From a virus: a DNA stretch of 11,843 nucleotides. Position 1 is the first letter of the stretch, and each line of letters begins with the position of its first letter. The stretch lies in the IMG/VR virus record IMGVR_UViG_3300045988_062539, positions 1 through 11,843 of that record; one strand, written 5' to 3'. Below, piece after piece: positions 1 to 11,843 of the stretch. Under the pieces are notes generated by a model, which ran no database searches, was not told where the DNA came from, and saw only the letters and a list, made by a program, of their open reading frames with translations. Position numbers and translations under genes: made by a program.

Positions 1-201
1 AAAAGGTACACAAAGCACGCATATTTAACATTTTCCAACTATGTTTTAACATTTGCTAACACACTTTGGCACGGTTTTTGTTGTGCCACATTTACCGTCA
101 TTGTTAACACACTTTAACACATTTAACACACCGTTAACACAGTTAATTTTTTCATAAAAGAAATGTTTCACGTGGAACAGTAAGAGAAGATGTTTCATGT
201 G
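1..201. repeat. Left inverted terminal repeat (perfect part)
   Basis: Positions 1-201 are the exact reverse complement of 11643-11843, checked base by base. The first mismatch is at 202 (g versus a), then imperfect homology with a 1-nt indel runs to about 212. The terminus reads 5'-AAAAGG. Confidence 0.97.
104..140. repeat. Phased TTAACAC direct-repeat array inside the left ITR
   Basis: TTAACAC starts at 104, 114, 123 and 134 (spacing 10, 9, 11 bp). Related TTAACAT at 25 and 46 and CTAACAC at 56. Confidence 0.8.
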
Positions 202-206
202 GAACA
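164..206. promoter_or_regulatory. Two operator-like 16-bp imperfect palindromes (TGTTTCACGTGGAACA and TGTTTCATGTGGAACA)
   Basis: Sites at 164-179 and 191-206, 27 bp apart start to start. Seven of 8 and 6 of 8 positions are self-complementary. The implied consensus is TGTTTCAcgTGAAACA. Confidence 0.6.
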
Positions 207-267
207 AAAGTGAATAATATGTTAAAATAATTTAAATTTAAAATTTTACATTATTTAACAAAAATAA

Positions 268-299
268 TTTGGTGATTTCGTGAAAAAGTCGTATCTTTG
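268..299 (+). promoter_or_regulatory. Bacteroidota-type promoter (-33 TTTG, -7 TATCTTTG) for the left arm
   Basis: TTTG at 268-271, a 20-nt spacer, then TAtcTTTG at 292-299, about 45 nt upstream of the ATG at 344. Matches the TTTG / TAnnTTTG consensus of the Bacteroides primary sigma factor. Confidence 0.65.
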
Positions 300-343
300 C
301 AACGTGATTAAGAAACAAAGTTGAACAATTAAAAATAAAAATT

Positions 344-634
344 ATGGCAAAGTATAAATTTATAGTTAGTGTAGATATAACTAGTTTCAAAGGTAGTAAC
401 GTTGCGACAACCGAAACAGTTACATTATCAAATTATGGTAACAACAACAAAGGTTTTAAAACCTTACAGGTTGCAAAAAATTTCTTTAAAGAAATTGTTG
501 AATCTTTATCAACTAGCGACAATAAAGAAAACGTTTTATATAATATCAAAGATAATAAAAATTTTTCTTTGGGTTATTATGATAAAGTGAATAGAGAATT
601 TATAAATAGAGAATATAAAGTTGTACGAATTTAA
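344..634 (+). CDS. Hypothetical protein (96 aa)
   Basis: ATG-to-TAA ORF, first gene after the left promoter. The composition looks protein-like, but I recognise no motif. Confidence 0.6.
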   Translation: MAKYKFIVSVDITSFKGSNVATTETVTLSNYGNNNKGFKTLQVAKNFFKEIVESLSTSDNKENVLYNIKDNKNFSLGYYDKVNREFINREYKVVRI

Positions 635-643
635 TGTTTAACC

Positions 644-669
644 GCCTGTAGGGGTAACACCTTACAGGC
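644..669 (+). other. GC-rich stem-loop after the first left-arm ORF
   Basis: gcctgtaggg (644-653) pairs with cccttacaggc-type arm 660-669: 10 bp including one G-U, with a 6-nt loop. It is followed by ATAAAAATAA, so there is no U-tract and this is not a classic terminator. Confidence 0.4.
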
Positions 670-686
670 ATAAAAATAATTGATAT

Positions 687-881
687 ATGGAACATAGTTA
701 TTTTAAAATCACTCTTAAACAGGCTACTACAGAAACGGTTTTTATGGTACGTTCTGACAAAGTAAGTGAATTCTTTAACAACAAAATCGACTACCTACAG
801 GGGGACTGTTCAATAACTGTAAAGGGTCGTTTTCCTACACACAAAGACAGTAGAAAATGGTTTGTAATTTCAACTAAATAA
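687..881 (+). CDS. Hypothetical protein (64 aa)
   Basis: ATG-to-TAA ORF that fills the gap between the neighbouring left-arm genes. No recognisable motif. Confidence 0.5.
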   Translation: MEHSYFKITLKQATTETVFMVRSDKVSEFFNNKIDYLQGDCSITVKGRFPTHKDSRKWFVISTK

Positions 882-888
882 TAATGAT

Positions 889-1311
889 ATGAAAAGAATT
901 AAGTATTTTAGTTTGTCTGAGTTCATCAACTCGGCAACTGCAAAACGTTTGGGCATTGATAATACCCCTACGTTTGAGGTAGTCGACAACTTAAACCGTT
1001 TAGCCGATTATTTGGATAAAATTCGTGAAAAGTTGGGTAAACCTATCTTAATTAATAGCGGTTTTCGTTGCCCGATGTTAAATAAAGCCGTTGGGGGTGT
1101 GGCTAATAGCCAACACTTAAAAGGTTTAGCCGCCGATGTTGTTTGTAGTGATATGAATACATTAGAAAAGGTTATAAGAGAAACAGGCGGTTTTGACCAA
1201 TTTATTAAAGAACACCGCAAAGGTTCTACTTCTTTTTGGTTTCATGTTTCAGTTTGTAACCGTAACGGTAAACCAAGACAACAAGTTATAATGAATCTAG
1301 AAAAGAAATAA
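889..1311 (+). CDS. Endolysin, zinc peptidase of the M15 (VanY / D-Ala-D-Ala carboxypeptidase-like, Peptidase_M15_3-type) family
   Basis: N-terminal YFSLSEF motif, then SGFRCPMLNKAVGGVANSQHLKGLAADV. This gives the H-x6-D zinc ligands (H76, D83) with a distal FWFHVSV histidine (H119), the characteristic signature of this small phage peptidase family. Confidence 0.85.
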   Translation: MKRIKYFSLSEFINSATAKRLGIDNTPTFEVVDNLNRLADYLDKIREKLGKPILINSGFRCPMLNKAVGGVANSQHLKGLAADVVCSDMNTLEKVIRETGGFDQFIKEHRKGSTSFWFHVSVCNRNGKPRQQVIMNLEKK

Positions 1312-1346
1312 AAAAACAGGCGGTAACATATTTACCGCCTGTTTTA
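1312..1346. terminator. Bidirectional intrinsic terminator between the convergent arms
   Basis: An 11-bp perfect stem, acaggcggtaa (1316-1326) with ttaccgcctgt (1332-1342), and a 5-nt loop. It has an A-run on the left and a T-run on the right, and sits between stop codons at 1309-1311 (+) and 1348-1350 (-). Confidence 0.85.
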
Positions 1347-1347
1347 T

Positions 1348-3198
1348 TTATAGATAAACACCGTTTGAAAGTTGTGAAACAATTTCATTAAATTCGTCAA
1401 CTAGCATACTATTAGTTGTTGTTAAGTTAACGTTTTCAAACTGTGCAAACCCTGTAACGTCCCCAATACGTTTTTGCTCTGTTGTGTTATTTACAGGAAC
1501 ATTTAACGGGTCAAAGTACTTAACAGTAACATAAGGTTCTAAACCCATTAAAACCGTATTTAAATCGCTTAAATCCCCGATAGTACTTATCTCATCATTC
1601 GCCAACGTTTTATAAATAATTTCGCTGCTACAATTTGCCGTACCGTTATTAATAGTAATACTGTCACATGATAAATTATAGGCACAATAACCTGTAATTA
1701 AATCTATATCGTAACTTAAATTTAATTCTTTTCCGATAAAATCACTATCTACAGGCACAAAACCCACAAACGGTATGAAACATTGTATAGTAGCGTTAAA
1801 ATCGTTTCCACTATCAGAGTTAACAGGTAATAGCACGTTTCCGAAATCTACGGGCACCTTAGAATTGTCAACACTATTTGTATTAATACTTGTATCAAAG
1901 TTAGCCAACTTTAAAGACGTTGGTGAAACATTCGGTACGTCCACGTAAACTTTGTGTAACCTGTTCACATATTCCCCAATATCATAATATTCATATTCAT
2001 AATTTTCATTTAACTTTTTAGTGAAACGAATTTTTGAAAAATCATCTAAAGTCTTTGTGTTGACTAGATACACGTTAATACTACCATAACCTGTTATTTC
2101 TGTGTCGGGGGCTGTTCCACCTAACAGAGTAAAAGTTGAATCACTTACTTTTTCTTTGTCGTTTGGGAACGTAAAAGTTAACGTTGCAGTTTTACCGTTG
2201 TTACTCAGAACAAAAGTGTGTTCTTCTGCTCCACCTGTTAACGGTTCCCAATTAGCAACAGGCAAATTTTTCGCATCGAAATGAGTTTTACTATTTGCCG
2301 TTGCAATAACGTTAATAGTTTCGTTTTCGATGTAATAAGGTTTTAACCCTGTTACGTTGCACCCTGTCATATTATTAACAGTTGTGCAAACAAGACGGTA
2401 AGCACCCGACAAAGTAACCGTTGTGCCCTGTTTTACATCAGTTAATGATATATTTATAACGTTTCCCGAAAAATCGGGTACAACTGTTTTCGTTTCCCCG
2501 TTAACGTCCGTATACTCTACAGAAACACCCACAAACTTTGCAGAATCACTATTACCTGTAACAGTTATAGAAACGTTTGTACCGTCTATAGTGTGCGTTT
2601 CATCACAATTACCTGTAATATTATTTATTATCTCAGTTTCCTTTGCTACTGTTTCACCTGTGAAAATCCACCCTACATTTAAGTTATTTAAAGGTGTTGA
2701 AACATATTGTTGTGCTACTGTATTATTATGTGAATAATCGAAACCTCCATCTAAATCATTTTTTAATGTTCCCTCAACAAATTTAAAACCGTTATCGGCT
2801 TTTAATGTTATTCTAGTTATAGCGTTGTTTCTGTCATCACTATTTACACCTGTATACATCTGCTCCAACGTACTGTGTGGAACGTTATTGACCAAATTAC
2901 CTAAAGTAAGTTGTTCCCCGTTGTAAGTTGTAGAATAACCGATAACAGAAACACTCATGCTTGCATAATTGTAATTTTTTACCGTTTTTATTATTGTTTC
3001 CGTGCTATCTTTTACAGTTTCAACAGTTACGGTTTTATTGTGGAAGTTACTGTCATTATCCACAAATTCAAGTGTAAACGGTTCACCGTTCCAAACGGTA
3101 TTTGCATTTAGCGTAAAAGTACAAATAACGTCCCAACCCTTTGTTTTAAAATTAGCCGTTGCACCGTACAGGTTAAATTTTTTTATTGCTATACTCAT
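1348..3198 (-). CDS. Tail protein: N-terminal beta-rich (putative receptor-binding) modules fused to a phi29 gp9-like tail-knob C-terminal region
   Basis: 616 aa. About aa 370-616 recall gp9: IPFVGFVPVDSDFIGKELNLSYDI versus phi29 [23 protein letters not shown]. The C-terminus FAQFENVNL..DEFNEIVSQLSNGVYL matches FNYVQTKD..DLQEIRTIFDNGITLW. About aa 1-370 are T/N/V-rich, with two similar modules starting NNITGNC (about aa 191) and NNMTGC (about aa 275). Confidence 0.65.
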   Translation of the reverse strand: MSIAIKKFNLYGATANFKTKGWDVICTFTLNANTVWNGEPFTLEFVDNDSNFHNKTVTVETVKDSTETIIKTVKNYNYASMSVSVIGYSTTYNGEQLTLGNLVNNVPHSTLEQMYTGVNSDDRNNAITRITLKADNGFKFVEGTLKNDLDGGFDYSHNNTVAQQYVSTPLNNLNVGWIFTGETVAKETEIINNITGNCDETHTIDGTNVSITVTGNSDSAKFVGVSVEYTDVNGETKTVVPDFSGNVINISLTDVKQGTTVTLSGAYRLVCTTVNNMTGCNVTGLKPYYIENETINVIATANSKTHFDAKNLPVANWEPLTGGAEEHTFVLSNNGKTATLTFTFPNDKEKVSDSTFTLLGGTAPDTEITGYGSINVYLVNTKTLDDFSKIRFTKKLNENYEYEYYDIGEYVNRLHKVYVDVPNVSPTSLKLANFDTSINTNSVDNSKVPVDFGNVLLPVNSDSGNDFNATIQCFIPFVGFVPVDSDFIGKELNLSYDIDLITGYCAYNLSCDSITINNGTANCSSEIIYKTLANDEISTIGDLSDLNTVLMGLEPYVTVKYFDPLNVPVNNTTEQKRIGDVTGFAQFENVNLTTTNSMLVDEFNEIVSQLSNGVYL

Positions 3199-3200
3199 AA

Positions 3201-3638
3201 CTAATTACCTTTAATAGTTACCATTATAATGTTATCATTATCACTAAATAACCCTTTATTAGGAAAATCTAGCTTTTTGAGTTTAGGGCGCAAATCGTAA
3301 GCATTTGTACGGTTTGATGCATACCCGTTTACGGTTTCACCTTTTGTTAACGTTCCTGTAGAATCCAAGATTTTATCTTTGTAAGTCATTAAAACGTCTG
3401 TACGCAAATAAACCGTACATATATCACCGTCTTGTCGTATTTCAGAAACGAAATAGTAACGGTGTAAACTTTCGATATAAACGTAATTAAACGTTACTAC
3501 GTTACGTGTACGGAAACGGATAACAGGTTCTAATATGTTTACAGTTGAATTTAATACACCTGTGTATTCTTCGTTTTCCTGTAGTGTCTTATTAACTCTG
3601 TTAGGTTCACCGTTATAATTATAAGTTTTTATCAGCAT
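3201..3638 (-). CDS. phi29 gp9-like tail-knob N-terminal domain protein (145 aa from the ATG at 3638)
   Basis: NYVYIESLHRYYFVSEIRQDGDICTVYLRTDVLMTY resembles the phi29 gp9 N-terminus (SYIMFQNADYGNKWFYAFVTELEF..VHFEIDVLQTWMF). The track start at 3677 is a TTG lying inside the hairpin at 3656-3695, so the ATG at 3638 is preferred. The ORF ends in TAG, 2 nt before the next ATG. Confidence 0.6.
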   Translation of the reverse strand: MLIKTYNYNGEPNRVNKTLQENEEYTGVLNSTVNILEPVIRFRTRNVVTFNYVYIESLHRYYFVSEIRQDGDICTVYLRTDVLMTYKDKILDSTGTLTKGETVNGYASNRTNAYDLRPKLKKLDFPNKGLFSDNDNIIMVTIKGN

Positions 3639-3655
3639 ACCACAAAAATTTAAAA

Positions 3656-3695
3656 AGGGTGTGCCCCGTGCTATCAACTACAGGAAACACACCCT
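3656..3695 (-). terminator. Hairpin with T-tract just after the capsid gene (possible leaky terminator)
   Basis: An 8-bp stem, agggtgtg (3656-3663) with cacaccct (3688-3695), and a 24-nt loop. On the minus strand it is followed by TTTTTAAATTTTT. The large loop makes it weak. Confidence 0.4.
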
Positions 3696-3716
3696 CAACA
3701 GTTAAACAACTAAAAA

Positions 3717-4901
3717 TTAGGCAACAAAGAACACAACAAAGTTTTCGTTTGTGTCATTGAAATAGCCAGCGTCAAACTTGTAATAGTTGTTAAAGAATTC
3801 CGCTTTTGCGTTGTAGTTGGTTGTTACTCGCTTATCAAGGTTTGTTACGCCTAAAGCGTCACGGTCGAACATAACACCCAACACACCGCTTATAGAAACA
3901 GACGCTCCGCTTGCACTCTTTACGTCAATTTTTGACGTGTGCTCAAATGAATAGTCTTTACCTGTTGCTTGCCAACTTGCAACAGTCTCAGCCGTTGGCA
4001 ACAATACGTTGTCGTTATGGTAAGTATCAGCATACAAATAGGTTTTGGCTGCTGCTGCGAAATCAGACAACAAAACGGTGTGCAAAATATCTTTTGGTGT
4101 AAAACGTTCTTTACCGCCAACGTTGAACAGGGTTGAAATTGTCTGCAAACGGTCTGAGTACAGTCCCATAATATAAGCAGCGAAACGGATAAAATCCGGG
4201 GTTGTTATCGCTGCTTTTGCAGTCAATTTTGCCCCTGTCTTATCGTTGTAAAGTTTCAACAGGTTAACGCACCGAACAGTACTTGCACTTGAATAGTCAA
4301 CAGTTTCGTGTGTTGACTCTACGAAACCAAAAGCCTTCTTGTCTGCGTCCAACGTCTCAGCTATCATGTTGTTAATTGTGCGCATAATAAGAGCGTCCAT
4401 TTTGATAGTCATTGATTTGTCAACGGCTGAGTAAATCATTGACAAGAAACCGTTCATTTGTTCCGCACTACTGAAACTTTCTTTTACCTGTCTTTCTGTG
4501 ATAGATACAGGAACCTCAAAAGTTACCTTTGAGTTAAAGAATTTTGCGGTAACGGTCGGTTTGTGGAAAACGTCCTGTTTGTACTCTTTACCGTCCTGTA
4601 AGTTCCAGGTATCGTTTTCTTCTGCATCGGGCACATCAGCCGAAATCTTTTCCAATATAGAACCGAATTCCCATGCGTCCATAAGCACACTTGGAACTTT
4701 ACCCGAATAAGGGCGGTTTACGAAAACCACTTTGCCGATATGGTTTACAAGTGATTTAACATAATTGTCAACTGCGTTTTGGTTGAACACTTCGTTACCC
4801 AAATCGACTAAACCTGTAAGGTCTTCGTTAACAAGTTCTGTATTACCCAAAACCTCACCCGATACGGTGTTAACTAAACTATAAATCTGTTTTACGTTCA
4901 T
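3717..4901 (-). CDS. Major capsid protein (phi29 gp8-like, HK97 fold expected)
   Basis: 394 aa. [22 protein letters not shown] parallels phi29 gp8 [42 protein letters not shown] parallels [22 protein letters not shown]. The position after the portal and a small protein is typical for a capsid gene. Confidence 0.75.
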   Translation of the reverse strand: [394 protein letters not shown]

Positions 4902-4920
4902 TTTTATAAAAATTAAGTAA

Positions 4921-5490
4921 TTAATAAATATCTACTGTTAACTCTTTTGCAAGTTCTGTGATTACTTGCGTTTTGAAATTAGTTTTGCGCAAACTCATTT
5001 CTTTTTGAATAATTTCACTAACAGGAACACCGCCCGACAAACTGTTCTTAACAACTGTTTTCGTAGCTGTTTCTTGTCGGTTCCCTGTAGAGTTTCTTTG
5101 TTGCTTTGTGTCATTTCCGAAATCTCCATTATTAAATGCTACACTTGAATTGACTGAGTTGTTATTCCCTGTTTCGTCCACGGTGTTATTTACCGTTTCA
5201 CTTGTCTTTTCTGTTACAGGGCTTAACACTTCGTATTGTTTATTAAACACTTGAATCTGTTTTTGCCACTCATCAAATTTAACCGTAATAATACCTTTTA
5301 CAATATCGTTTGCAGTTTCATTTGTGATAGCGTTAACTAGAGTTCGTTCCCCGTATTTGAAACGTAAATCAATATCAATTAGTTTCGGGTCGTCTTCCCC
5401 GAATATTGAATCGTACAAAACAGGAAACAGGGGTTTAAAGATTTTTTCAAATAACCCGTTTTCAGTTGTGAAAAGTTCATTAATTTTCAT
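4921..5490 (-). CDS. Virion morphogenesis protein of unclear role (scaffold or lower-collar/adaptor candidate)
   Basis: 189 aa. The ATG overlaps the portal stop by 11 nt. The central region is low-complexity N/S/T-rich. The assignment rests on position only. Confidence 0.35.
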   Translation of the reverse strand: MKINELFTTENGLFEKIFKPLFPVLYDSIFGEDDPKLIDIDLRFKYGERTLVNAITNETANDIVKGIITVKFDEWQKQIQVFNKQYEVLSPVTEKTSETVNNTVDETGNNNSVNSSVAFNNGDFGNDTKQQRNSTGNRQETATKTVVKNSLSGGVPVSEIIQKEMSLRKTNFKTQVITELAKELTVDIY

Positions 5491-6544
5491 CTTTGTTTTC
5501 TTTTTCTTCTGTTTCTTCTGTTTCTTGCGTTTCTTCTGTTTCCGTTTCTGTTTCTTCTGTTTCTTGCGTTTCTTCTGTTTCTGTTTCTGTTTCTTCTGTT
5601 TCTTGCGTTTCTTCTGTTTCGTTTTCCGTTACAGGGTCAACGTCTTCTGTATCGGTGTGGTAGTGTCCGTCTTCTGTTGCTTGGAGCAACGACAAATAAT
5701 TTTCGTGCTCGATTTTCCAACTTGACCCCAAAGTTACGGTTATTTCCGTACCGAACATTTCGTTAACACGTTTCACACCCTCAACACGTTCTGTTAACAT
5801 CGAATCTACAAAAGGTAATAAAGCGTCTATATTCATTGAAACTTCTTGCGTGTTCAACCGTTCACGTTTCATGTTATAGTTAGCATTCAAACCCAAATCG
5901 TTAAACATGCTAGCTTTGTAGTACTGTAACAGTTCAATTAATTGCCCGATTTGTTGGTTTCCCTGTGTTGGCGGTGTTTGCAAGTTTACACCTTTGAAAA
6001 AGGCATTTTCACCTATTACTGAGAAATCACCGCTCAAAATCTTTTGCAAAAACAATTCTGCACTTTGTTTTGTCTTATCATCGCTAGCAGAAATTAACAT
6101 CGTGATACGTGTTAAAATACTTGCCAAATTAAGCGTTATTGTTGCGTCTGTGTAAAGAACACCATATTTACCGATAATAGGCAAAAGTGAATCTGCAAAC
6201 GGTGTATTGTTGATAACGACAATATCTGAATCAATTTTAAACGTTTTGTTCAAATTTAACCATGGGTTTGTAACCACGTAATCTTTGCCGTGATAATACG
6301 CATCACATTCACCTCCACGTGTACCCTGTAAAGCATACAGTTCCCCGTTAACTTTTGCAATTCCAACGTTACCCGATGTTTGTAGAATCTTTTCAAGTTC
6401 TACAGGGGGCATTGTTTCGGGTGTACCCGTGTACTCAAACATCTTCGAAGTCATACAAAGAACACGTTGCATAAATGTGAATAATGCAGAATCTTTGTCT
6501 TTTACTTCTGTTTGATACCTGTTATATAAGTTTTCTTTTTTCAT
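5480..6544 (-). CDS. Portal / head-tail connector (phi29 gp10-like) with an acidic repeat C-terminus
   Basis: 354 aa. [27 protein letters not shown] parallels phi29 gp10 [52 protein letters not shown] parallels [23 protein letters not shown]. Confidence 0.8.
   Translation of the reverse strand: [354 protein letters not shown]
5505..5622. repeat. 39-bp tandem repeat (about 3 copies) encoding the acidic [13 protein letters not shown] units of the portal tail
   Basis: cttgcgtttcttctgttt recurs at 5524, 5563 and 5602, exactly 39 bp apart. The two full units differ at one base. Confidence 0.9.
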
Positions 6545-6739
6545 TTACTTAATTAGAGTTTTAATTAAGGTACAAAGTTCTGTCAACACTTTTGTGTTAC
6601 TTTGCACTGTTTCGTTTAACTTGTCGGTTTCGTTTTGATGTCTTTCGTTCTGTTTCTCCATGTAGAAGAAAAGTGCGACACACACCGCAACAGGAAAACC
6701 AACGTTACTTATTAATGATACTATTCCGTTTACGTCCAT
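6545..6739 (-). CDS. Small single-pass membrane protein, YvrJ-like; holin candidate (64 aa from the ATG at 6739)
   Basis: The ISNVGFPVAVCVALFFYMEK hydrophobic segment resembles the YvrJ-family core (..GNVGFPI..), followed by a charged helical tail. The track start at 6799 is a GTG that overlaps the predicted promoter, so the ATG at 6739 is preferred. The TAA abuts the portal ATG. Confidence 0.55.
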   Translation of the reverse strand: MDVNGIVSLISNVGFPVAVCVALFFYMEKQNERHQNETDKLNETVQSNTKVLTELCTLIKTLIK

Positions 6740-6771
6740 ATAGCAAATTTTATCTTTGTTATTTAATGGTG

Positions 6772-6802
6772 CAAATATAGCACTTTTATTTGGTATCACA
6801 AA
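6772..6802 (-). promoter_or_regulatory. Internal Bacteroidota-type promoter for the morphogenesis genes
   Basis: The minus strand reads TTTG (6802-6799), a 19-nt spacer, then TAtaTTTG (6779-6772), about 33 nt upstream of the ATG at 6739. Confidence 0.5.
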
Positions 6803-6819
6803 ATAAAACGGGGGGAAAG

Positions 6820-6835
6820 TGTTTCACGTTAAACA
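6820..6835. promoter_or_regulatory. Fifth copy of the ITR palindrome (TGTTTCACGTTAAACA) just upstream of the internal promoter
   Basis: 14 of 16 identical to the ITR site at 164-179, with 7 of 8 positions self-complementary. It lies 18 bp upstream of the -33 box. Confidence 0.55.
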
Positions 6836-6858
6836 TTTTTTAACCCAGTTAACAGATA

Positions 6859-7998
6859 TTAAGCAATAATGTTACTTCTTGCACTTGCCATTAAGTAATT
6901 TCGCACAATTTCACCAATTTCGTTATTCTGATAAAATACCTTATCGGTTGCGAAATATCTAGTAATCTGTGACTCTAGATAAGTCGCAGTACTCAATAAC
7001 TTTCGTTTGTAGTTTGGTTTGCCGTTCATTTGCAAAGAATATATCAAACTTTTGTCTGTGTCCTTTATCGGGGTTGTCTTGTTGTGGATATAAATAAAGT
7101 TATTCACCCCGTTTTCTTTGTCCTCAATCTGTATCACGTTGCCCTGTAATGTCATTTCGTTAAACTGAATATAGAAGACAAACAACACATCGTTCGGTTT
7201 GTACTTTACAGGTAGGTGTGGATATACAGCGAGTTCCCATTTACCGCCCGTAATCATTTGCAAATTTTCATTGTCAAAACAGAAGTATTTGTTACTAGCT
7301 TTCTGTTTAACAATCGTGCTACAGTATTCTACTGCAACCGTTGCACCGTGTTCGCCGAATCTATAAATATCAATTGTTCCCTGTTCCATAACTCGCACCT
7401 GTTTTAAACCCATTTCTGTAAAGTACGGGCAAAACTGATTAACGGTGTTACCTAACATAAATACTTTAACATCGTTTCTCTGTCTGATAATTGTACTCAA
7501 CAGGTTCATATATAACATAAACTCATCGGGTAAATAATAGCGTCTAGTCAAAAATTCATCGAATACAACTGTGGTTATATTCGGGTAACTGCTTGACTTT
7601 TCGTGTTCCTGTTCTGATAAACAGAAACCGAAACAGAACGGTGTGTTATCGGGTACACGTTTTTTGGTTTCAGGGTCATAAGACGAAAGAAACCATTTAC
7701 CCGAAATGTAAAACACTTCGTTAAACTTACCGTCTGTAAGTTCCTGTATCACACCGTTTGCCACATGATTTGCAAATAAACTTTCGGCACGTTTTCCCCT
7801 TAAATCTTCTCGCCAACGTCTAATATATGCCATTTGTTTTCCTGTCTTAAGATATTCTTTGATACCGTACAACAGGGTGGCATAAGTTTTACCGTTTGAA
7901 CGTTCACCAAATATAACGTTATAATCGGCATTCTTTGCCAAAATTCGTGAAAGACTGTAAAACTTTGGCGTTTCTACTTTTTCTTTTTTCTGTTTCAT
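6859..7998 (-). CDS. DNA packaging (encapsidation) ATPase, phi29 gp16-like
   Basis: 379 aa. Walker A is FGERSNGKT (G31-T38; compare phi29 gp16 GARGIGKS). Walker B is TTVVFDEF (D147, E148). The ATG lies 1 nt after the polymerase stop. Confidence 0.8.
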   Translation of the reverse strand: MKQKKEKVETPKFYSLSRILAKNADYNVIFGERSNGKTYATLLYGIKEYLKTGKQMAYIRRWREDLRGKRAESLFANHVANGVIQELTDGKFNEVFYISGKWFLSSYDPETKKRVPDNTPFCFGFCLSEQEHEKSSSYPNITTVVFDEFLTRRYYLPDEFMLYMNLLSTIIRQRNDVKVFMLGNTVNQFCPYFTEMGLKQVRVMEQGTIDIYRFGEHGATVAVEYCSTIVKQKASNKYFCFDNENLQMITGGKWELAVYPHLPVKYKPNDVLFVFYIQFNEMTLQGNVIQIEDKENGVNNFIYIHNKTTPIKDTDKSLIYSLQMNGKPNYKRKLLSTATYLESQITRYFATDKVFYQNNEIGEIVRNYLMASARSNIIA

Positions 7999-7999
7999 A

Positions 8000-10210
8000 T
8001 TATTCTTTTTTTAATCTGATACCAATTAAATAATTTATATAAAGTACTGAAAGACTTAAAGTGTACCCCGTTGGTTCTAAGTGCACCCCTGTTACTGTGT
8101 CGTAACTTGAAATAACGCCTTTATAGTCTTTTATCGTACCTGTCTGTTCATAATCTATATATGTATGAATATTTTTACATGTTGCCGTTGGAGGTATGTC
8201 TAAGTAATTGGTAAAAGCGTCAAAGATACCTTTTTCCCCAAACGTTTCTAACATGTAGGGAATAGCAGTTTTTTTGTTAACACCCGAAACTGTCATACTG
8301 TAATTGTAATTTTTACCGTTAACAGTAAGGGCGTTTTCTTCTTCGACCAGGTACCTTTTAGCACCTAAAGTCTTAAAACGTCTGTATCGTCCTTCGTAAT
8401 CCCAAACGCCAAGCGGTTTAGCTATTCCTTTTATTGTTACGGGTTCAACCTTTTCAAAGGGTATTTTATGAAACTTACAGGCTGCACGTAATTTCTGTTG
8501 CGCTAAATCATTATATAGCTTAAAATATTCTTTGTGTGCATCGCCGTTCATTATCTTAACGCTATCTGTATCACTATATATGTAATCGTCTCCACATTCT
8601 GAAATACCTGTAAACAGGTTTCTTCTTGCATAAGCGGTTACATAAATACCCCAAGGGTAAAAAAGAAATCTGTTTCTGCTTTCGTTGTATTTGCTTAACA
8701 TTTCTAACTGTTTTTCGCCTGTTAGGTGTTCAACGTCCCAATTTTCACCGTTGCACAAAATTTCATCACGTAACGGGTTTGTAACGCACATACCGTAACA
8801 ACTGTTTAGCATTTCTTTGCTATTCAAATACTCAACTTCTTTTCCCTTTACGCCCTTTAGTTTGGTTTTCATTTCATACAGGTGTAAAATTGATAACACA
8901 AACTCAGTCGGTAAATATTCTTTTCTGTAACAAATCATTTTGCCTATTCGTATTTGTTCCCAAGAATAAAACTGTGAAAAAACTTTAAAGTCTATTTCTG
9001 TTATAGTCATACAGATTTTACTAGCACAAACTAAACGCCCGTTATTCTCGGAAACATTTTCTTTAACGAAACACTTACTTACCGATATAGGGGTTTCGTT
9101 TTCTGATTTTGCGAAAATGTTTGTTATCTCAATATCAAATACGCAACAAAATTTACTAGTCATAAAATTAAACTGTTTCATAGATTTAACAGGAACGACA
9201 ACACCCGTACTCATAGGAAATTTCTCCGATACCATAACGTACGGGTAACTACTTGTAAAATCGTAACTGTCTACGTTTTCCATTATTAAATCTGTATACT
9301 TTGCGTTTGCATGAGTAAAACCACCCGAGAAAGCACGTTGCAGCATTTCAAACTCTTCGATACCTGTTATATTTAAATCGTGTATTTTGTCGAAATACTT
9401 AAAGTTTGGTGTTGTCTTGCCTGTTTCTTCGTCTGTTTTCTTGAAACATACAGAACGGCAATATTTACGTACAAAACCTGTTTTTGTCAAAGGTAATTTT
9501 GTTATTCCCTTGTAACGTTCTATTAATTCCTGTACGTAACACATAACCACTTTTATATCGTTCAAACAATAACCAATTTCTTTTTGCGTCAACGGTGTTT
9601 TACTGTGTCGCAATAGACTATAGTCTAAATCCCCGACTAACTTTTCACACTTGTAAGTGTGTAACTGTTCGCCCAACTTTGCCAACGAATAACCCGAAAG
9701 TAAGTAACTGCATCGAAACTCTAAACCTGTTTTAGTTATTCCGTAAATCGGTTTGCGCAAATCTATAGAGAAAACTTTTTCCCAATCTAACAATTCACGG
9801 AAAAACTGAAATTCGTATGCTAAATTGTGAACGTATATAATAATACGTCTTTTTTGGTTTAAGTTTAACAAAATTACTATCTCAGATAACATTTGCAAAA
9901 ACTCTTTCCAGGTTCGACCCATTATGCAATATCCGTTAATTCCAAATTGCCAAACATACATTAAAGAACACTTTTCCATTTTGGTTTCTTTACCGCCTAA
10001 TTTTATATAGCGTTCATAACTGTAAGTTTCCCCGTACTCGTCCCTGTAAAAAGACGTTGTTTCAATATCGAAAGATACAGGAACGTTTAAGAACTTTTCG
10101 CCCTTATTGTTTCCTGTAAAATTTTTTTCGTTCACAGCCAAAGATAAAACCTTTGCAATTTCTTTTGGGGTGTAAACTTCTGCATGTAGTTCAAAGGGTA
10201 TCTTTTTCAT
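8000..10210 (-). CDS. Protein-primed family-B DNA polymerase
   Basis: 736 aa. Exo I FDIETT (D48, E50). Exo II HNLAYEFQF. SLAKL motif. Exo III YCLNDIKV (Y214, D218). Motif A DFTSSYP (D317). Motif B KEMLNSCYG (K465). Motif C YSDTDS (D547, D549). KxY as GAKRY (K618). Confidence 0.95.
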   Translation of the reverse strand: MKKIPFELHAEVYTPKEIAKVLSLAVNEKNFTGNNKGEKFLNVPVSFDIETTSFYRDEYGETYSYERYIKLGGKETKMEKCSLMYVWQFGINGYCIMGRTWKEFLQMLSEIVILLNLNQKRRIIIYVHNLAYEFQFFRELLDWEKVFSIDLRKPIYGITKTGLEFRCSYLLSGYSLAKLGEQLHTYKCEKLVGDLDYSLLRHSKTPLTQKEIGYCLNDIKVVMCYVQELIERYKGITKLPLTKTGFVRKYCRSVCFKKTDEETGKTTPNFKYFDKIHDLNITGIEEFEMLQRAFSGGFTHANAKYTDLIMENVDSYDFTSSYPYVMVSEKFPMSTGVVVPVKSMKQFNFMTSKFCCVFDIEITNIFAKSENETPISVSKCFVKENVSENNGRLVCASKICMTITEIDFKVFSQFYSWEQIRIGKMICYRKEYLPTEFVLSILHLYEMKTKLKGVKGKEVEYLNSKEMLNSCYGMCVTNPLRDEILCNGENWDVEHLTGEKQLEMLSKYNESRNRFLFYPWGIYVTAYARRNLFTGISECGDDYIYSDTDSVKIMNGDAHKEYFKLYNDLAQQKLRAACKFHKIPFEKVEPVTIKGIAKPLGVWDYEGRYRRFKTLGAKRYLVEEENALTVNGKNYNYSMTVSGVNKKTAIPYMLETFGEKGIFDAFTNYLDIPPTATCKNIHTYIDYEQTGTIKDYKGVISSYDTVTGVHLEPTGYTLSLSVLYINYLIGIRLKKE

Positions 10211-10839
10211 TATAAACCGAAATCTTTAAAAGAATCTAATATCTTTTGTACTGTTTCTTCGACTTTTTCGCCAACGTTATCAATACTATTTTGTAAGTTA
10301 TCGGCTATTTTTACCGCATCACTTTCAATTTGGTCTGATACGTCCCGTGCGTCCTGTTCAAGTTCGCCTGTAAAGTCTTTATATTGCATAAGGTATTTTT
10401 CCAAAAATTTTTGGTCTGATACACTGGCAATCTTACCAATCAATTTTTCTTGCATCAAAGAAAACTCATCGTCTGAAAGTTTATAAGTTTTCTTTAAATG
10501 TTTTGCGTATTCATTCGTACCTGTAGCTGTTGATGTTGGTTGCTGCAAAAATGCAATAGCCTTTGAATATTCAATTTTTAAATTGTTCCATTCGTGTTTC
10601 ATCGAAAATTTTGTATACCCTTTTACATCACCTTTATTTAAGGCAACTACAGCGGGTGAAACAACACCGTTTTTTTCTATATTCTGTATACGTCTGTTTG
10701 CCTGTTGAAACACTCTTGCAATTTCTTTTCGTAAACTGCTACTACTTTCAACTGCATTTATTATTTCTTTTTTGACGTGCGCTTTTTTCGTTGCCCTAAA
10801 GGTACGACCGCTAAAGCCTATTGGGTTTTTATTTGCCAT
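10210..10839 (-). CDS. Terminal protein candidate
   Basis: 209 aa, immediately upstream of the polymerase and coupled to it by a TAATG overlap, as for phi29 gene 3 and gene 2. It has a basic N-terminus, a helical acidic C-terminal half, and a C-terminal KILDSFKDFGL reminiscent of phi29 TP KILSYLEQYRRGDFDLSLKGF. I cannot assign the priming residue. Confidence 0.55.
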   Translation of the reverse strand: MANKNPIGFSGRTFRATKKAHVKKEIINAVESSSSLRKEIARVFQQANRRIQNIEKNGVVSPAVVALNKGDVKGYTKFSMKHEWNNLKIEYSKAIAFLQQPTSTATGTNEYAKHLKKTYKLSDDEFSLMQEKLIGKIASVSDQKFLEKYLMQYKDFTGELEQDARDVSDQIESDAVKIADNLQNSIDNVGEKVEETVQKILDSFKDFGL

Positions 10840-10854
10840 AACTTTTTAGTTTAA

Positions 10855-10899
10855 ATGAAACAAAAACAGGGATAACAATAAAACTACTGTTACCCCTGT
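10855..10899 (-). terminator. Strong intrinsic terminator/attenuator between the early small genes and the TP-polymerase genes
   Basis: The minus-strand RNA forms a 12-bp stem (acaggggtaaca with tgttatccctgt, one G-U) and a 10-nt loop, followed by TTTTTGTTTCATTT. It ends about 16 nt before the TP ATG. Confidence 0.7.
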
Positions 10900-10926
10900 A
10901 AAATTATCACCCTTTACCTACATTCG

Positions 10927-11292
10927 CTACTTGTCTACAAAGGTAATACCATAACACTTCTTTGCATGTGAATCGTATTCATAAATTGTGTAACCTACCT
11001 TGTTTTCCTTGATAGCCTCAACCGCATCACTATCTGCGAGAATATCTCGTATCGTGTCAGCTGTGAATTGTGGCAAGTTCACCAAACGTTTATTTTCTGC
11101 GTCAATTATTACAGGTGAATCACCCAACTGCGATTTGTGGACGTACAAACCATTGATAGGATGTACCACATCTGCGCCACCGTCATTTTTACTGTTGTAG
11201 ATGTCTATCAACTTTACAAACGGAAAATCGGTTGTATCAATACCGAAACTTGTTTTGTTGAACTTACTTGCAAAACTAAAACCTTTAACCAT
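10927..11292 (-). CDS. Hypothetical protein, candidate phi29 p5-like single-stranded DNA-binding protein
   Basis: 121 aa (phi29 p5 is 124 aa), in the syntenic position upstream of the TP. The C-terminal half LVNLPQFTADTIRDILADSDAVEAIKENKVGYTIYEYDSHAKKCYGITF loosely parallels p5 [48 protein letters not shown]. Weak, from memory. Confidence 0.35.
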   Translation of the reverse strand: MVKGFSFASKFNKTSFGIDTTDFPFVKLIDIYNSKNDGGADVVHPINGLYVHKSQLGDSPVIIDAENKRLVNLPQFTADTIRDILADSDAVEAIKENKVGYTIYEYDSHAKKCYGITFVDK

Positions 11293-11337
11293 AACTTAAA
11301 TATTTAACGTTAAACTTGTTGTACCTGTGCACAGGTG

Positions 11338-11505
11338 TTACTTTACTTCTGTTACACCGTTGGCGGCTGCAAATTCGTTAAGCCACTTCTTAAAGCGGTT
11401 CAACTTAATAACCGCCTTATCATCTTTAGCTACTTCGTTGCTTGTCATAAGTGCGTTAACACTTGTAATACAGTTGAAAACTGTTTCATTAAAATTTTCG
11501 TTCAT
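11338..11505 (-). CDS. Small hypothetical protein (55 aa), first gene of the right-end operon; below the ORF-track length cutoff
   Basis: Hand translation gives ATG at 11505 to TAA at 11338-11340: MNENFNETVFNCITSVNALMTSNEVAKDDKAVIKLNRFKKWLNEFAAANGVTEVK. It lies about 45 nt downstream of the right promoter, is co-oriented with all other right-arm genes, and has an in-frame stop upstream of the ATG. Confidence 0.55.
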   Translation of the reverse strand: MNENFNETVFNCITSVNALMTSNEVAKDDKAVIKLNRFKKWLNEFAAANGVTEVK

Positions 11506-11554
11506 AATTACCTTAATTTTAAATTGTTAAACTTATTGTTTCTAAAACACGGTG

Positions 11555-11585
11555 CAAAGATACGTCAAATTTATGAATCCACAAA
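11555..11585 (-). promoter_or_regulatory. Bacteroidota-type promoter (-33 TTTG, -7 TATCTTTG) for the right arm
   Basis: The minus strand reads TTTG (11585-11582), a 19-nt spacer, then TAtcTTTG (11562-11555). This is the same -7 octamer as the left promoter. Confidence 0.65.
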
Positions 11586-11637
11586 ATTATTTTTGTTAAA
11601 TAGTGTTAAAGAATTAATTTAATAGTTGTTAACACTT

Positions 11638-11680
11638 TGTTTCACATGAAACATCTTCTCTTACTGTTCCACGTGAAACA
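11638..11680. promoter_or_regulatory. Two operator-like palindromes at the right end (TGTTTCAcaTGAAACA and the mirror of 164-179)
   Basis: 11638-11653 is a perfect 7+7 inverted repeat around a 2-nt centre. 11665-11680 is the ITR mirror of 164-179. Confidence 0.6.
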
Positions 11681-11843
11681 TTTCTTTTATGAAAAAATTA
11701 ACTGTGTTAACGGTGTGTTAAATGTGTTAAAGTGTGTTAACAATGACGGTAAATGTGGCACAACAAAAACCGTGCCAAAGTGTGTTAGCAAATGTTAAAA
11801 CATAGTTGGAAAATGTTAAATATGCGTGCTTTGTGTACCTTTT
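11643..11843. repeat. Right inverted terminal repeat (perfect part)
   Basis: Exact reverse complement of 1-201. Confidence 0.97.
11704..11740. repeat. Phased GTGTTAA array inside the right ITR (mirror of 104-140)
   Basis: Mirror image of the left array by ITR symmetry. Confidence 0.8.

Follow-up and report, generated by a model that had tools for sequence, protein, structure and literature searches.

A two-gene, immunoglobulin-decorated tail knob probably encoded by an uncultured, minimal phi29-like podophage lineage of the human gut

The closest described relatives of the locus reported here are phi29-like phages of Gram-negative hosts, in which two proteins together make up the tail knob (Evseev et al. 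2024, PMC11476376). One of these corresponds to the N-terminal part of phi29 gp9, while the other combines lateral immunoglobulin-like (Ig-like) domains with the gp9 C-terminal part. The number of domains varies between phages, no fibre gene was found, and an HHpred match and similar predicted structures were reported for the proteins of phages Phanie, Astrid and DU_PP_III and of the faecal metagenome-assembled genome (MAG) 2692_55609 (same source). The first description, in Phanie, is that of Pourcel et al. (2024, J Virol), as cited in PMC11476376. We have analyzed a stretch of viral DNA (IMG/VR record IMGVR_UViG_3300045988_062539, positions 1 to 11,843, hereafter the window) that represents a compact phi29-like genome of 11,843 bp. 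Its minus strand carries a pair of adjacent genes at 1348-3638 for proteins of 145 and 616 amino acids (aa), here called the N-part and the C-part. Our reading, to which we give a probability of roughly 0.75, is that these are two real, co-transcribed, tightly coupled genes that jointly encode the distal tail tube (knob) of a minimal, Astrithrvirus-related, phi29-like podophage, with the Ig-like modules of the C-part as its likely adhesin. The features of the locus are the following, with confidence given as the predicted local distance difference test (pLDDT) of AlphaFold2 models.

3201-3638, minus strand: tail-knob N-part gene, 145 aa plus a TAG stop.
3354-3638, minus strand: N-part residues 1-95, predicted beta-sandwich plus short helix (pLDDT >90), equivalent of the tail-tube-like N-terminal domain of gp9.
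3204-3353, minus strand: N-part residues 96-145, predicted extended arm (pLDDT 45-69) with the terminal strand motif IIMVTIKG.
3196-3203, minus strand: gene junction, with TAG at 3201-3203, the spacer TT at 3199-3200 and ATG at 3196-3198.
1348-3198, minus strand: tail-knob C-part gene, 616 aa plus a stop, with four Ig-like modules and then the conserved C-domain.
2905-3198, minus strand: Ig-like module A (aa ~1-98), the most distal module and the one most specific to its lineage; DSSP strands within 3-91, pLDDT 58-81; few distant relatives align here.
2641-2904, minus strand: Ig-like module B (aa ~99-186), where close relatives vary most (entropy peaks of 0.46-0.60 bits at aa 101-175).
2392-2640, minus strand: Ig-like module C (aa ~187-269), which opens with NNITGNC; pLDDT ~90; many distant relatives align from aa ~180-190.
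2116-2391, minus strand: Ig-like module D (aa ~270-361), which opens with NNMTGC; pLDDT ~90; adjoins the C-domain and is the most widely conserved module.
1351-2115, minus strand: conserved C-domain (aa 362-616), constant throughout the family and ending in the motif E..EI...L.NGVYL.

The original prediction, made from the DNA letters, had described the junction as a TAG stop, 2 nucleotides (nt) and then an ATG in a different frame, and this is what the sequence reads. The start codons of the two open reading frames (ORFs) lie 440 nt apart, so their frames differ. The N-part start found in relatives is the ATG at 3638, and the upstream TTG at 3677 is merely a mechanical ORF start. Two TAA codons stand in the downstream frame no more than 15 nt upstream of the ATG of the 616-aa ORF. 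Both knob genes are directly downstream of the major capsid protein (MCP) gene (3717-4901), a layout shared with assan and Phanie. A beta-rich stretch does precede the C-terminal part, as had been proposed, with lengths to be corrected slightly: ~361 aa instead of ~370 for the beta-rich stretch, and ~255 aa instead of ~250 for the C-domain.

Genes for the connector, a ~189-aa protein, the MCP, a ~145-aa N-part and a long C-part follow one another in the same order in the Astrithrvirus group (Phanie gp9 and gp10, Astrid, assan, astrithr, DU_PP_III and the MAG 2692_55609), with Ig-like modules between N-part and C-domain and without a fibre gene, as in the window. Genomes of the group measure ~11.6-11.9 kb, and the window MCP shows 57-58% identity to its counterparts in the Salmonella phages Astrid, assan and astrithr, in Phanie of Acinetobacter (57.6%) and in DU_PP_III of Pectobacterium; similar MCPs occur in a few further ~11-kb phages with Gram-negative hosts. 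By BLASTP the N-part is homologous to assan_9 (30% identity over the full length, E 1e-10) and to Phanie gp9, annotated "putative tail knob protein" (27% identity, E 3e-10). Homologues retrieved with assan_9 itself are all near-identical proteins of Astrithrvirus. The C-domain is homologous to the C-terminus of assan_10 (25% identity over 311 columns, E 2e-15), and the match of the C-part to Phanie gp10 is marginal (E 0.047) and colinear to the C-terminus. Unlike these phages, the window belongs to a different, uncultured human-gut lineage with 34.9% GC. It has four modules, compared with six in Phanie (the count of Evseev et al., PMC11476376; the number differs in others), their sequences are unrelated to those of the group, and its endolysin is an M15 enzyme encoded convergently, where that of Phanie is an amidase encoded on the same strand. 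A split, Ig-decorated knob is already published for Astrithrvirus-group phages; what is new here is the uncultured lineage carrying it. The proposal of a gp9-like knob split in two with inserted modules holds for the N-part, for the modules, for the homology to assan_9 and assan_10 and for the match to the published split knob, and falls short at the link between C-domain and gp9. The large knob protein of Phanie (OX458330.1, 7796-10360) is annotated "poly(beta-D-mannuronate) lyase," which looks like an automatic misannotation of the Ig-module region.

Homologues show the two genes as a standing pair. N-part homologues form 797 clusters and C-part homologues 719; the best 120 of each are 145-147 aa and 613-617 aa long, respectively, and lie on many independent ~11-12-kb contigs. 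The members of homologue pairs are called separately in hundreds of independent assemblies (ENA, Logan, JGI). Four gut-metagenome contigs (L002-L005) have the same gene pair with the same 2-nt gap, while 78 of the 80 IMG/VR loci of a second clade place a gene for ~150 aa ahead of the large one, in most cases ~6 nt upstream. Pairs from further clades (loci among L087 and L091-L095) measure 146+880, 154+984, 143+738, 145+344, 152+660 and 143+627 aa, and those of the cultured phages assan and Phanie 146+568 and 147+854 aa. The junction takes several forms across lineages: a TAATG overlap (assan, L092, L093) or a spacer of 2, 4, ~6 or 15 nt, the last being AT-rich and carrying an extra stop codon (L091). 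Among the relatives examined, the downstream gene always opens with its own ATG and a conserved Met-Ala/Ser start. One locus has an extra 139-aa gene (L092, 1811-2230; Pfam DUF5675) between the MCP and knob N-part genes.

The 145-aa protein was predicted to resemble the gp9 N-terminal domain, and profile and fold comparisons both agree. Single-sequence searches with the N-part give no Pfam, PHROGs or PDB match. A profile of 42 sequences from ten clades, searched against 177,635 PDB sequences at E<=10, yields only three matches, all of them tail knobs: C1 (4eo2_A, E 1.9e-4), Andhra (8egs_Y, E 0.12) and phi29 (5fb4_A, E 0.2). All three fall at knob N-terminal residues ~50-150 (49-149 in the C1 knob). 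The Pfam model Caud_tail_N (PF16838), to which phi29 gp9 itself scores 202 bits, is touched below threshold by 4 of the 42 family members (best E 0.0055); five members touch PHROG 2248 "tail protein" and five a PHROG named "peptidase." When the AlphaFold2 model of the N-part is compared to the PDB with Foldseek, the top two matches are siphophage neck proteins (SaPI1 neck 9mu3_C, E 1.6e-3; NF5 neck, E 1.5e-2) and the third is phi29 gp9 (5fb5_B, E 4e-2, probability 0.96, 115 columns). Lower matches are flavin reductases and chymotrypsin-like (3CL) protease barrels. The fold neighbours described for the gp9 N-domain are broadly similar, with trypsin and flavoredoxin beside the folds of necks and tail tubes (Evseev et al. 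2024, PMC11476376). In phi29, too, the distal-tail-tube gene follows the MCP gene. The IIMVTIKG strand of the arm is present in all loci, with I138 and M139 invariant and T141 nearly so across the ten clades. This arm and its strand probably dock onto the partner protein; AlphaFold3 models of relatives contain inter-subunit beta-sheets (Evseev et al. 2024, PMC11476376).

The AlphaFold2 model of the C-part (150 sequences, pLDDT 83.4) consists of four all-beta modules followed by a mixed C-domain (362-616), and a Foldseek search of the PDB with the full-length model brings Ig, FN3 and macroglobulin chains to the top (PirB, fibronectin, alpha-2-macroglobulin, the pilin PitB). Both results support the predicted tandem beta-sandwich modules. 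Among BFVD models the top matches include the 568-aa protein of Astrid (E 3e-24), along with uncharacterised podovirus proteins. By sequence the modules match no Pfam Ig, Big or FN3 family, and module C has a weak profile match to the scIg12 Ig domain among PDB sequences. The modules had also been thought similar to one another in sequence, on the strength of the openings NNITGNC (aa 192-198) and NNMTGC (aa 275-280), which form the first strands of modules C and D respectively. This similarity did not hold up: C against D gives z=2.8 (8 of 300 shuffles) in an out-of-register alignment, the hhalign comparison is not significant, and other pairs do not rise above chance. Modules A-D are structural repeats, not sequence repeats. 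They are comparable to the tandem Ig-like, FN3 and Big domains of phage structural proteins (Hoc-like decoration proteins, tail-fibre Ig domains), which are likewise beta-sandwiches of ~85-90 aa in tandem and in variable copy number; unlike those, the window modules would belong to the tail-tube-forming protein itself. Weak adhesion to carbohydrates is the function assumed for such tandem Ig-like domains on phage structural proteins.

Among 1.84 billion representative proteins, 632 C-part relatives were found (representatives of 50%-identity clusters). Their lengths extend to ~1030 aa overall and cluster at ~345, 435, 520, 615, 705, 790, 880 and 984 aa, in steps of ~88 aa, so the family can be read as a constant C-domain of ~255 aa preceded by one to about eight units of ~88 aa. 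Single-module relatives (~345 aa) align from aa ~273-277 of the window C-part. Distant relatives mostly align from module D or C onward, and the N-terminal modules are therefore lineage-specific. In one IMG/VR clade (L006-L085), C-parts range from 442 to 725 aa, while the first ~25 C-domain residues are near-identical and the N-parts 84-100% identical; these variants differ at the N-terminal end, since the short ones match the C-terminal portion of the longest. In another locus (L089, 2098-3000), ~900 nt without a called gene lie between the N-part gene and a 291-aa C-part. This gap is probably a broken or frameshifted module region, and the shortest C-part length class may therefore be an artefact.

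A second split knob, in Clostridium perfringens phage CPS2 (Guelinviridae, MH248069.1, 1486-4271), helps in judging what the C-domain is. There the knob is likewise encoded by two adjacent genes, 2 nt apart and directly after the MCP gene. The first (CPS2 gp8, 527 aa) comprises phi29 gp9 residues 13-166 (BLASTP E 7e-17) plus Phage_lysozyme and Peptidase_M23 domains, and the second (399 aa) the gp9 C-part (BLASTP E 1e-21; Pfam phi29_gp9_C, E 2e-26). The break falls at about the same place as that of the window, after gp9 residue ~166, with extra domains at the junction. The extra domains of CPS2 are enzymes on the C-terminus of the N-part gene, whereas those of the window are Ig modules on the C-part, and the CPS2 host is Gram-positive. 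By tblastn the same two-gene pattern is suggested in CPD2, phiCPV4 and CPQ8. Vibrio phage Peru-2, another candidate from the literature, is T7-like and has no bearing on the question. This type of split is not mentioned in Evseev et al. 2024 (PMC11476376), and its occurrence in a phage of a Gram-positive host argues against the single origin in a Gram-negative ancestor that those authors suggested. Given the CPS2 parallel, the split is not special to the window's small genome.

In phi29, gp9 (PDB 5FB4/5FB5; PF16838 plus PF20934) is one chain of 599 aa without Ig modules, and the window has two proteins with them. The tube-like N-terminal domain of gp9 matches the N-part by profile and by fold, and the extreme C-termini of gp9 and the C-part have in common the motif (D/E)..EI...(L/F)..NG(V/I).L. 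The long G/A/S/M-rich hydrophobic membrane-insertion loop of gp9 (residues 429-490) has no counterpart in the C-part, as had been noted: over 60 aa its G/A/S/M fraction peaks at 0.27, and that of gp9 reaches 0.62, at residue 429. Phage phi29 is equipped, besides, with separate appendages (gp12) and with a tail lysin (gp13). We presume the C-domain to be the distal body of the knob; all of the 148 full-length relatives listed (of the 632) match all the way to their own C-terminus.

A number of results weigh against this interpretation of the locus, most of them at the C-domain. Neither gp9 Pfam model is reached by the window proteins. The N-part has no Caud_tail_N match at E<=0.1 (gathering score 27 bits), and the Foldseek E value for 5fb5 is modest (0.04). 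The model phi29_gp9_C (PF20934), which finds phi29 gp9 at E 7e-206 and the second CPS2 protein (CPS2_9) at E 2e-26, matches neither the 616-aa protein nor, at E<=1, a single one of 35 diverse C-domains. Three profiles, including one of 35 C-domain sequences and one of 150 full-length sequences, find no knob among PDB sequences, just weak Ig matches. We aligned the 148-sequence C-domain alignment by hhalign to phi29 gp9, to an 8-member gp9 family, to CPS2_9 and to an alignment of gp9 C-termini only. The E values are 0.04-0.1, not significant, and confidence is limited to the last 25-45 aa, driven by the last ~25 (window TTTNSMLVDEFNEIVSQLSNGVYL, gp9 FISGDINNNDLQEIRTIFDNGITL). A hidden Markov model of gp9 C-terminal regions, run against all family representatives, recovers the terminal motif alone, in one of them (P0373). 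The predicted resemblance of the last ~250 aa to the gp9 C-part is thus not borne out by sequence comparison, since there is no phi29_gp9_C or PDB match and the extreme C-terminal motif aligns non-significantly. The module region, moreover, lacks the hypervariability of many receptor-binding tips: in the 120 closest relatives the modules average 0.33 bits and the C-domain 0.22 bits, with a peak in module B, so that the hypervariability envisaged for the N-terminal modules comes down to a mild excess. Finally, the dependence of Phanie on a helper phage tail (as related in PMC11476376) means that an adhesin role is not the sole option for the modules. We nevertheless infer, from the literature and the gene context, that the C-domain is equivalent to the gp9 C-part; the claim draws on gene position, on the CPS2 parallel and on the HHpred result and predicted structures of homologues in Evseev et al. 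2024 (PMC11476376).

Four other explanations were weighed. A 2-nt deletion or a 1-nt insertion right at the TAG would fuse the two frames, so that a sequencing or assembly indel at 3195-3205 might have broken one conventional gp9-like gene. The probability of this is negligible: the two proteins are separate in the hundreds of independent ENA, Logan and JGI assemblies, in 78 of 80 IMG/VR loci, in seven further clades and in cultured assan and Phanie, and TAA stops stand immediately upstream of the downstream ATG in its frame. Because the split is conserved with differing junctions in many lineages, a sequencing indel is excluded and the two-ORF split, as originally predicted, is genuine. The very tight gene spacing, and the presence of both parts in a single chain in phi29 gp9, might instead point to programmed frameshifting or stop-codon bypass that yields a gp9-sized fusion with the modules as an internal insertion. 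We consider this very improbable, as there is no conserved slippery sequence, the junction is wholly different between clades (the AT-rich L091 spacer with its extra stop included), target-frame stops occur within 15 nt upstream of the ATG, and the downstream gene always has its own ATG and Met-Ala/Ser start. From the junction sequences, a conserved recoding signal is very unlikely.

The other two alternatives accept both genes and differ about what the larger protein does. It might be an unrelated tail fibre, spike or adhesin whose C-domain merely serves as its anchor on a tube that the 145-aa protein builds, perhaps together with the 189-aa one. All sequence tests for gp9 C-part homology are negative or non-significant, as this would have it, and a modular, length-variable architecture is typical of adhesins. 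We regard it as unlikely all the same: the C-part sits where a gp9 C-part is expected, directly after the N-part; CPS2 has a bona fide phi29_gp9_C protein in exactly that post-split position; and the genome otherwise has no knob-body candidate. Greedy hhalign (low -mact) also places the C-domain on gp9 330-583 and CPS2_9 97-378, the region covered by Pfam phi29_gp9_C, in an alignment that is grown from the C-terminal seed and so is neither independent nor significant. Alternatively, the modules could attach the particle to a helper phage's tail instead of binding the bacterium. Phanie, with the same knob architecture and a 57.6% identical MCP, is infectious solely when bound to the contractile tail of its helper myophage Aci01-1 (Pourcel et al. 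2024, as reported in PMC11476376), and the window has no recognisable receptor-binding protein besides the modules. On the other hand, astrithr and assan were isolated by plating on Salmonella according to their records, with no helper mentioned in the sources, and the C-part is just marginally similar to Phanie gp10. A satellite lifestyle of the Phanie type is accordingly a rather improbable explanation of the modules, and it is just as doubtful that this abundant gut lineage, like Phanie, has no entry apparatus of its own and uses its 24 modules to dock onto the tail of an unrelated helper phage.

In the two-gene knob that we favour, the 145-aa product would supply the tail-tube-like gp9-type N-terminal domain (residues 1-95), and its arm would zip onto the 616-aa protein through the IIMVTIKG strand. 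The 616-aa product would supply the 255-aa C-domain as the distal knob body, with the four Ig-like modules ahead of it in the place of the gp9 middle region. If the knob is hexameric, the modules may project sideways from it, 24 per virion, and act as an adhesin that binds cell-surface carbohydrate. It was predicted that no separate fibre or appendage gene exists, and indeed the 11.8-kb genome has no further large structural gene of unknown function, the largest unassigned ORFs being 209 and 189 aa. The modules are most likely the phage's adhesin because there is no other fibre or spike gene, because module number changes quickly and because the outermost modules vary most; a receptor-binding role is plausible on these grounds.

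The remaining features of the genome are these.

8000-10210, minus strand: protein-primed family-B DNA polymerase (PolB).
6859-7998, minus strand: gp16-type packaging ATPase.
5480-6544, minus strand: gp10-type connector.
4921-5490, minus strand: 189-aa protein.
3717-4901, minus strand: Phi29_MCP capsid protein.
1313-1345, minus strand: predicted intrinsic terminator, a 14-bp stem plus T-run directly after the C-part stop codon.
889-1311, plus strand: M15 endolysin, convergent on the knob gene pair.

The hairpin at 1313-1345 is predicted to close the late operon, facing the convergent endolysin gene; T-runs flank both sides of its 14 pairs, and it is probably a bidirectional terminator. Two short-tandem-repeat arrays, at 103-206 and 11638-11741, are mirror images of each other ~100 nt from each window end, with repeat units of 9-10 nt (GTTAACACAC) and of 27 nt. 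Their look is that of structured inverted terminal repeats in a linear genome with protein priming, and for this reason the window probably represents a complete genome. Among 50,697 phage records none matches it at the nucleotide level. P0110, a homologue 86% identical to the 616-aa protein, is carried by contigs of human gut metagenomes. Every relative retains the 189-aa protein (184-190 aa), encoded between connector and MCP, and the literature name for it is shortened lower collar. Searches of Pfam, PHROGs and PDB sequences yield no match to it, a 9-sequence profile included (a lower-collar identity was looked for in the PDB). No scaffolding gene is recognisable in the window. A 39-nt unit repeated 3.1 times at 5498-5624 (minus strand) encodes an acidic, Glu/Thr-rich C-terminal tail of the connector (ETEETQETEETETET...) and gives rise, on the other strand, to a spurious ORF of 133 aa (5324-5725); connector length varies among relatives from 330 to 354 aa.

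The window adds an uncultured and evidently widespread human-gut lineage to the group of phages with a two-gene, Ig-decorated knob. The value of this is incremental, since the basic phenomenon has already been published. Genomes of ~11.8 kb are among the smallest known for tailed phages, and such minimal phages raise the question of how so few tail proteins recognise and penetrate a cell. Were the modules after all to dock onto helper phages, satellite podophages that hijack tails would be a common component of the gut virome, and it would be helper tails, not bacterial receptors, that the rapid gain and loss of modules follows. The family survey shows that the main variable is module number (~1 to 8), which shifts even between close relatives and does so at the distal end. 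A gp9 split at the boundary between N-domain and C-part occurs in Gram-positive Clostridium phages too, with enzymes filling the gap. Together, the variation in module number and the insertion of enzymes in CPS2 suggest that the middle of gp9 serves generally as a place where modules for host interaction are inserted.

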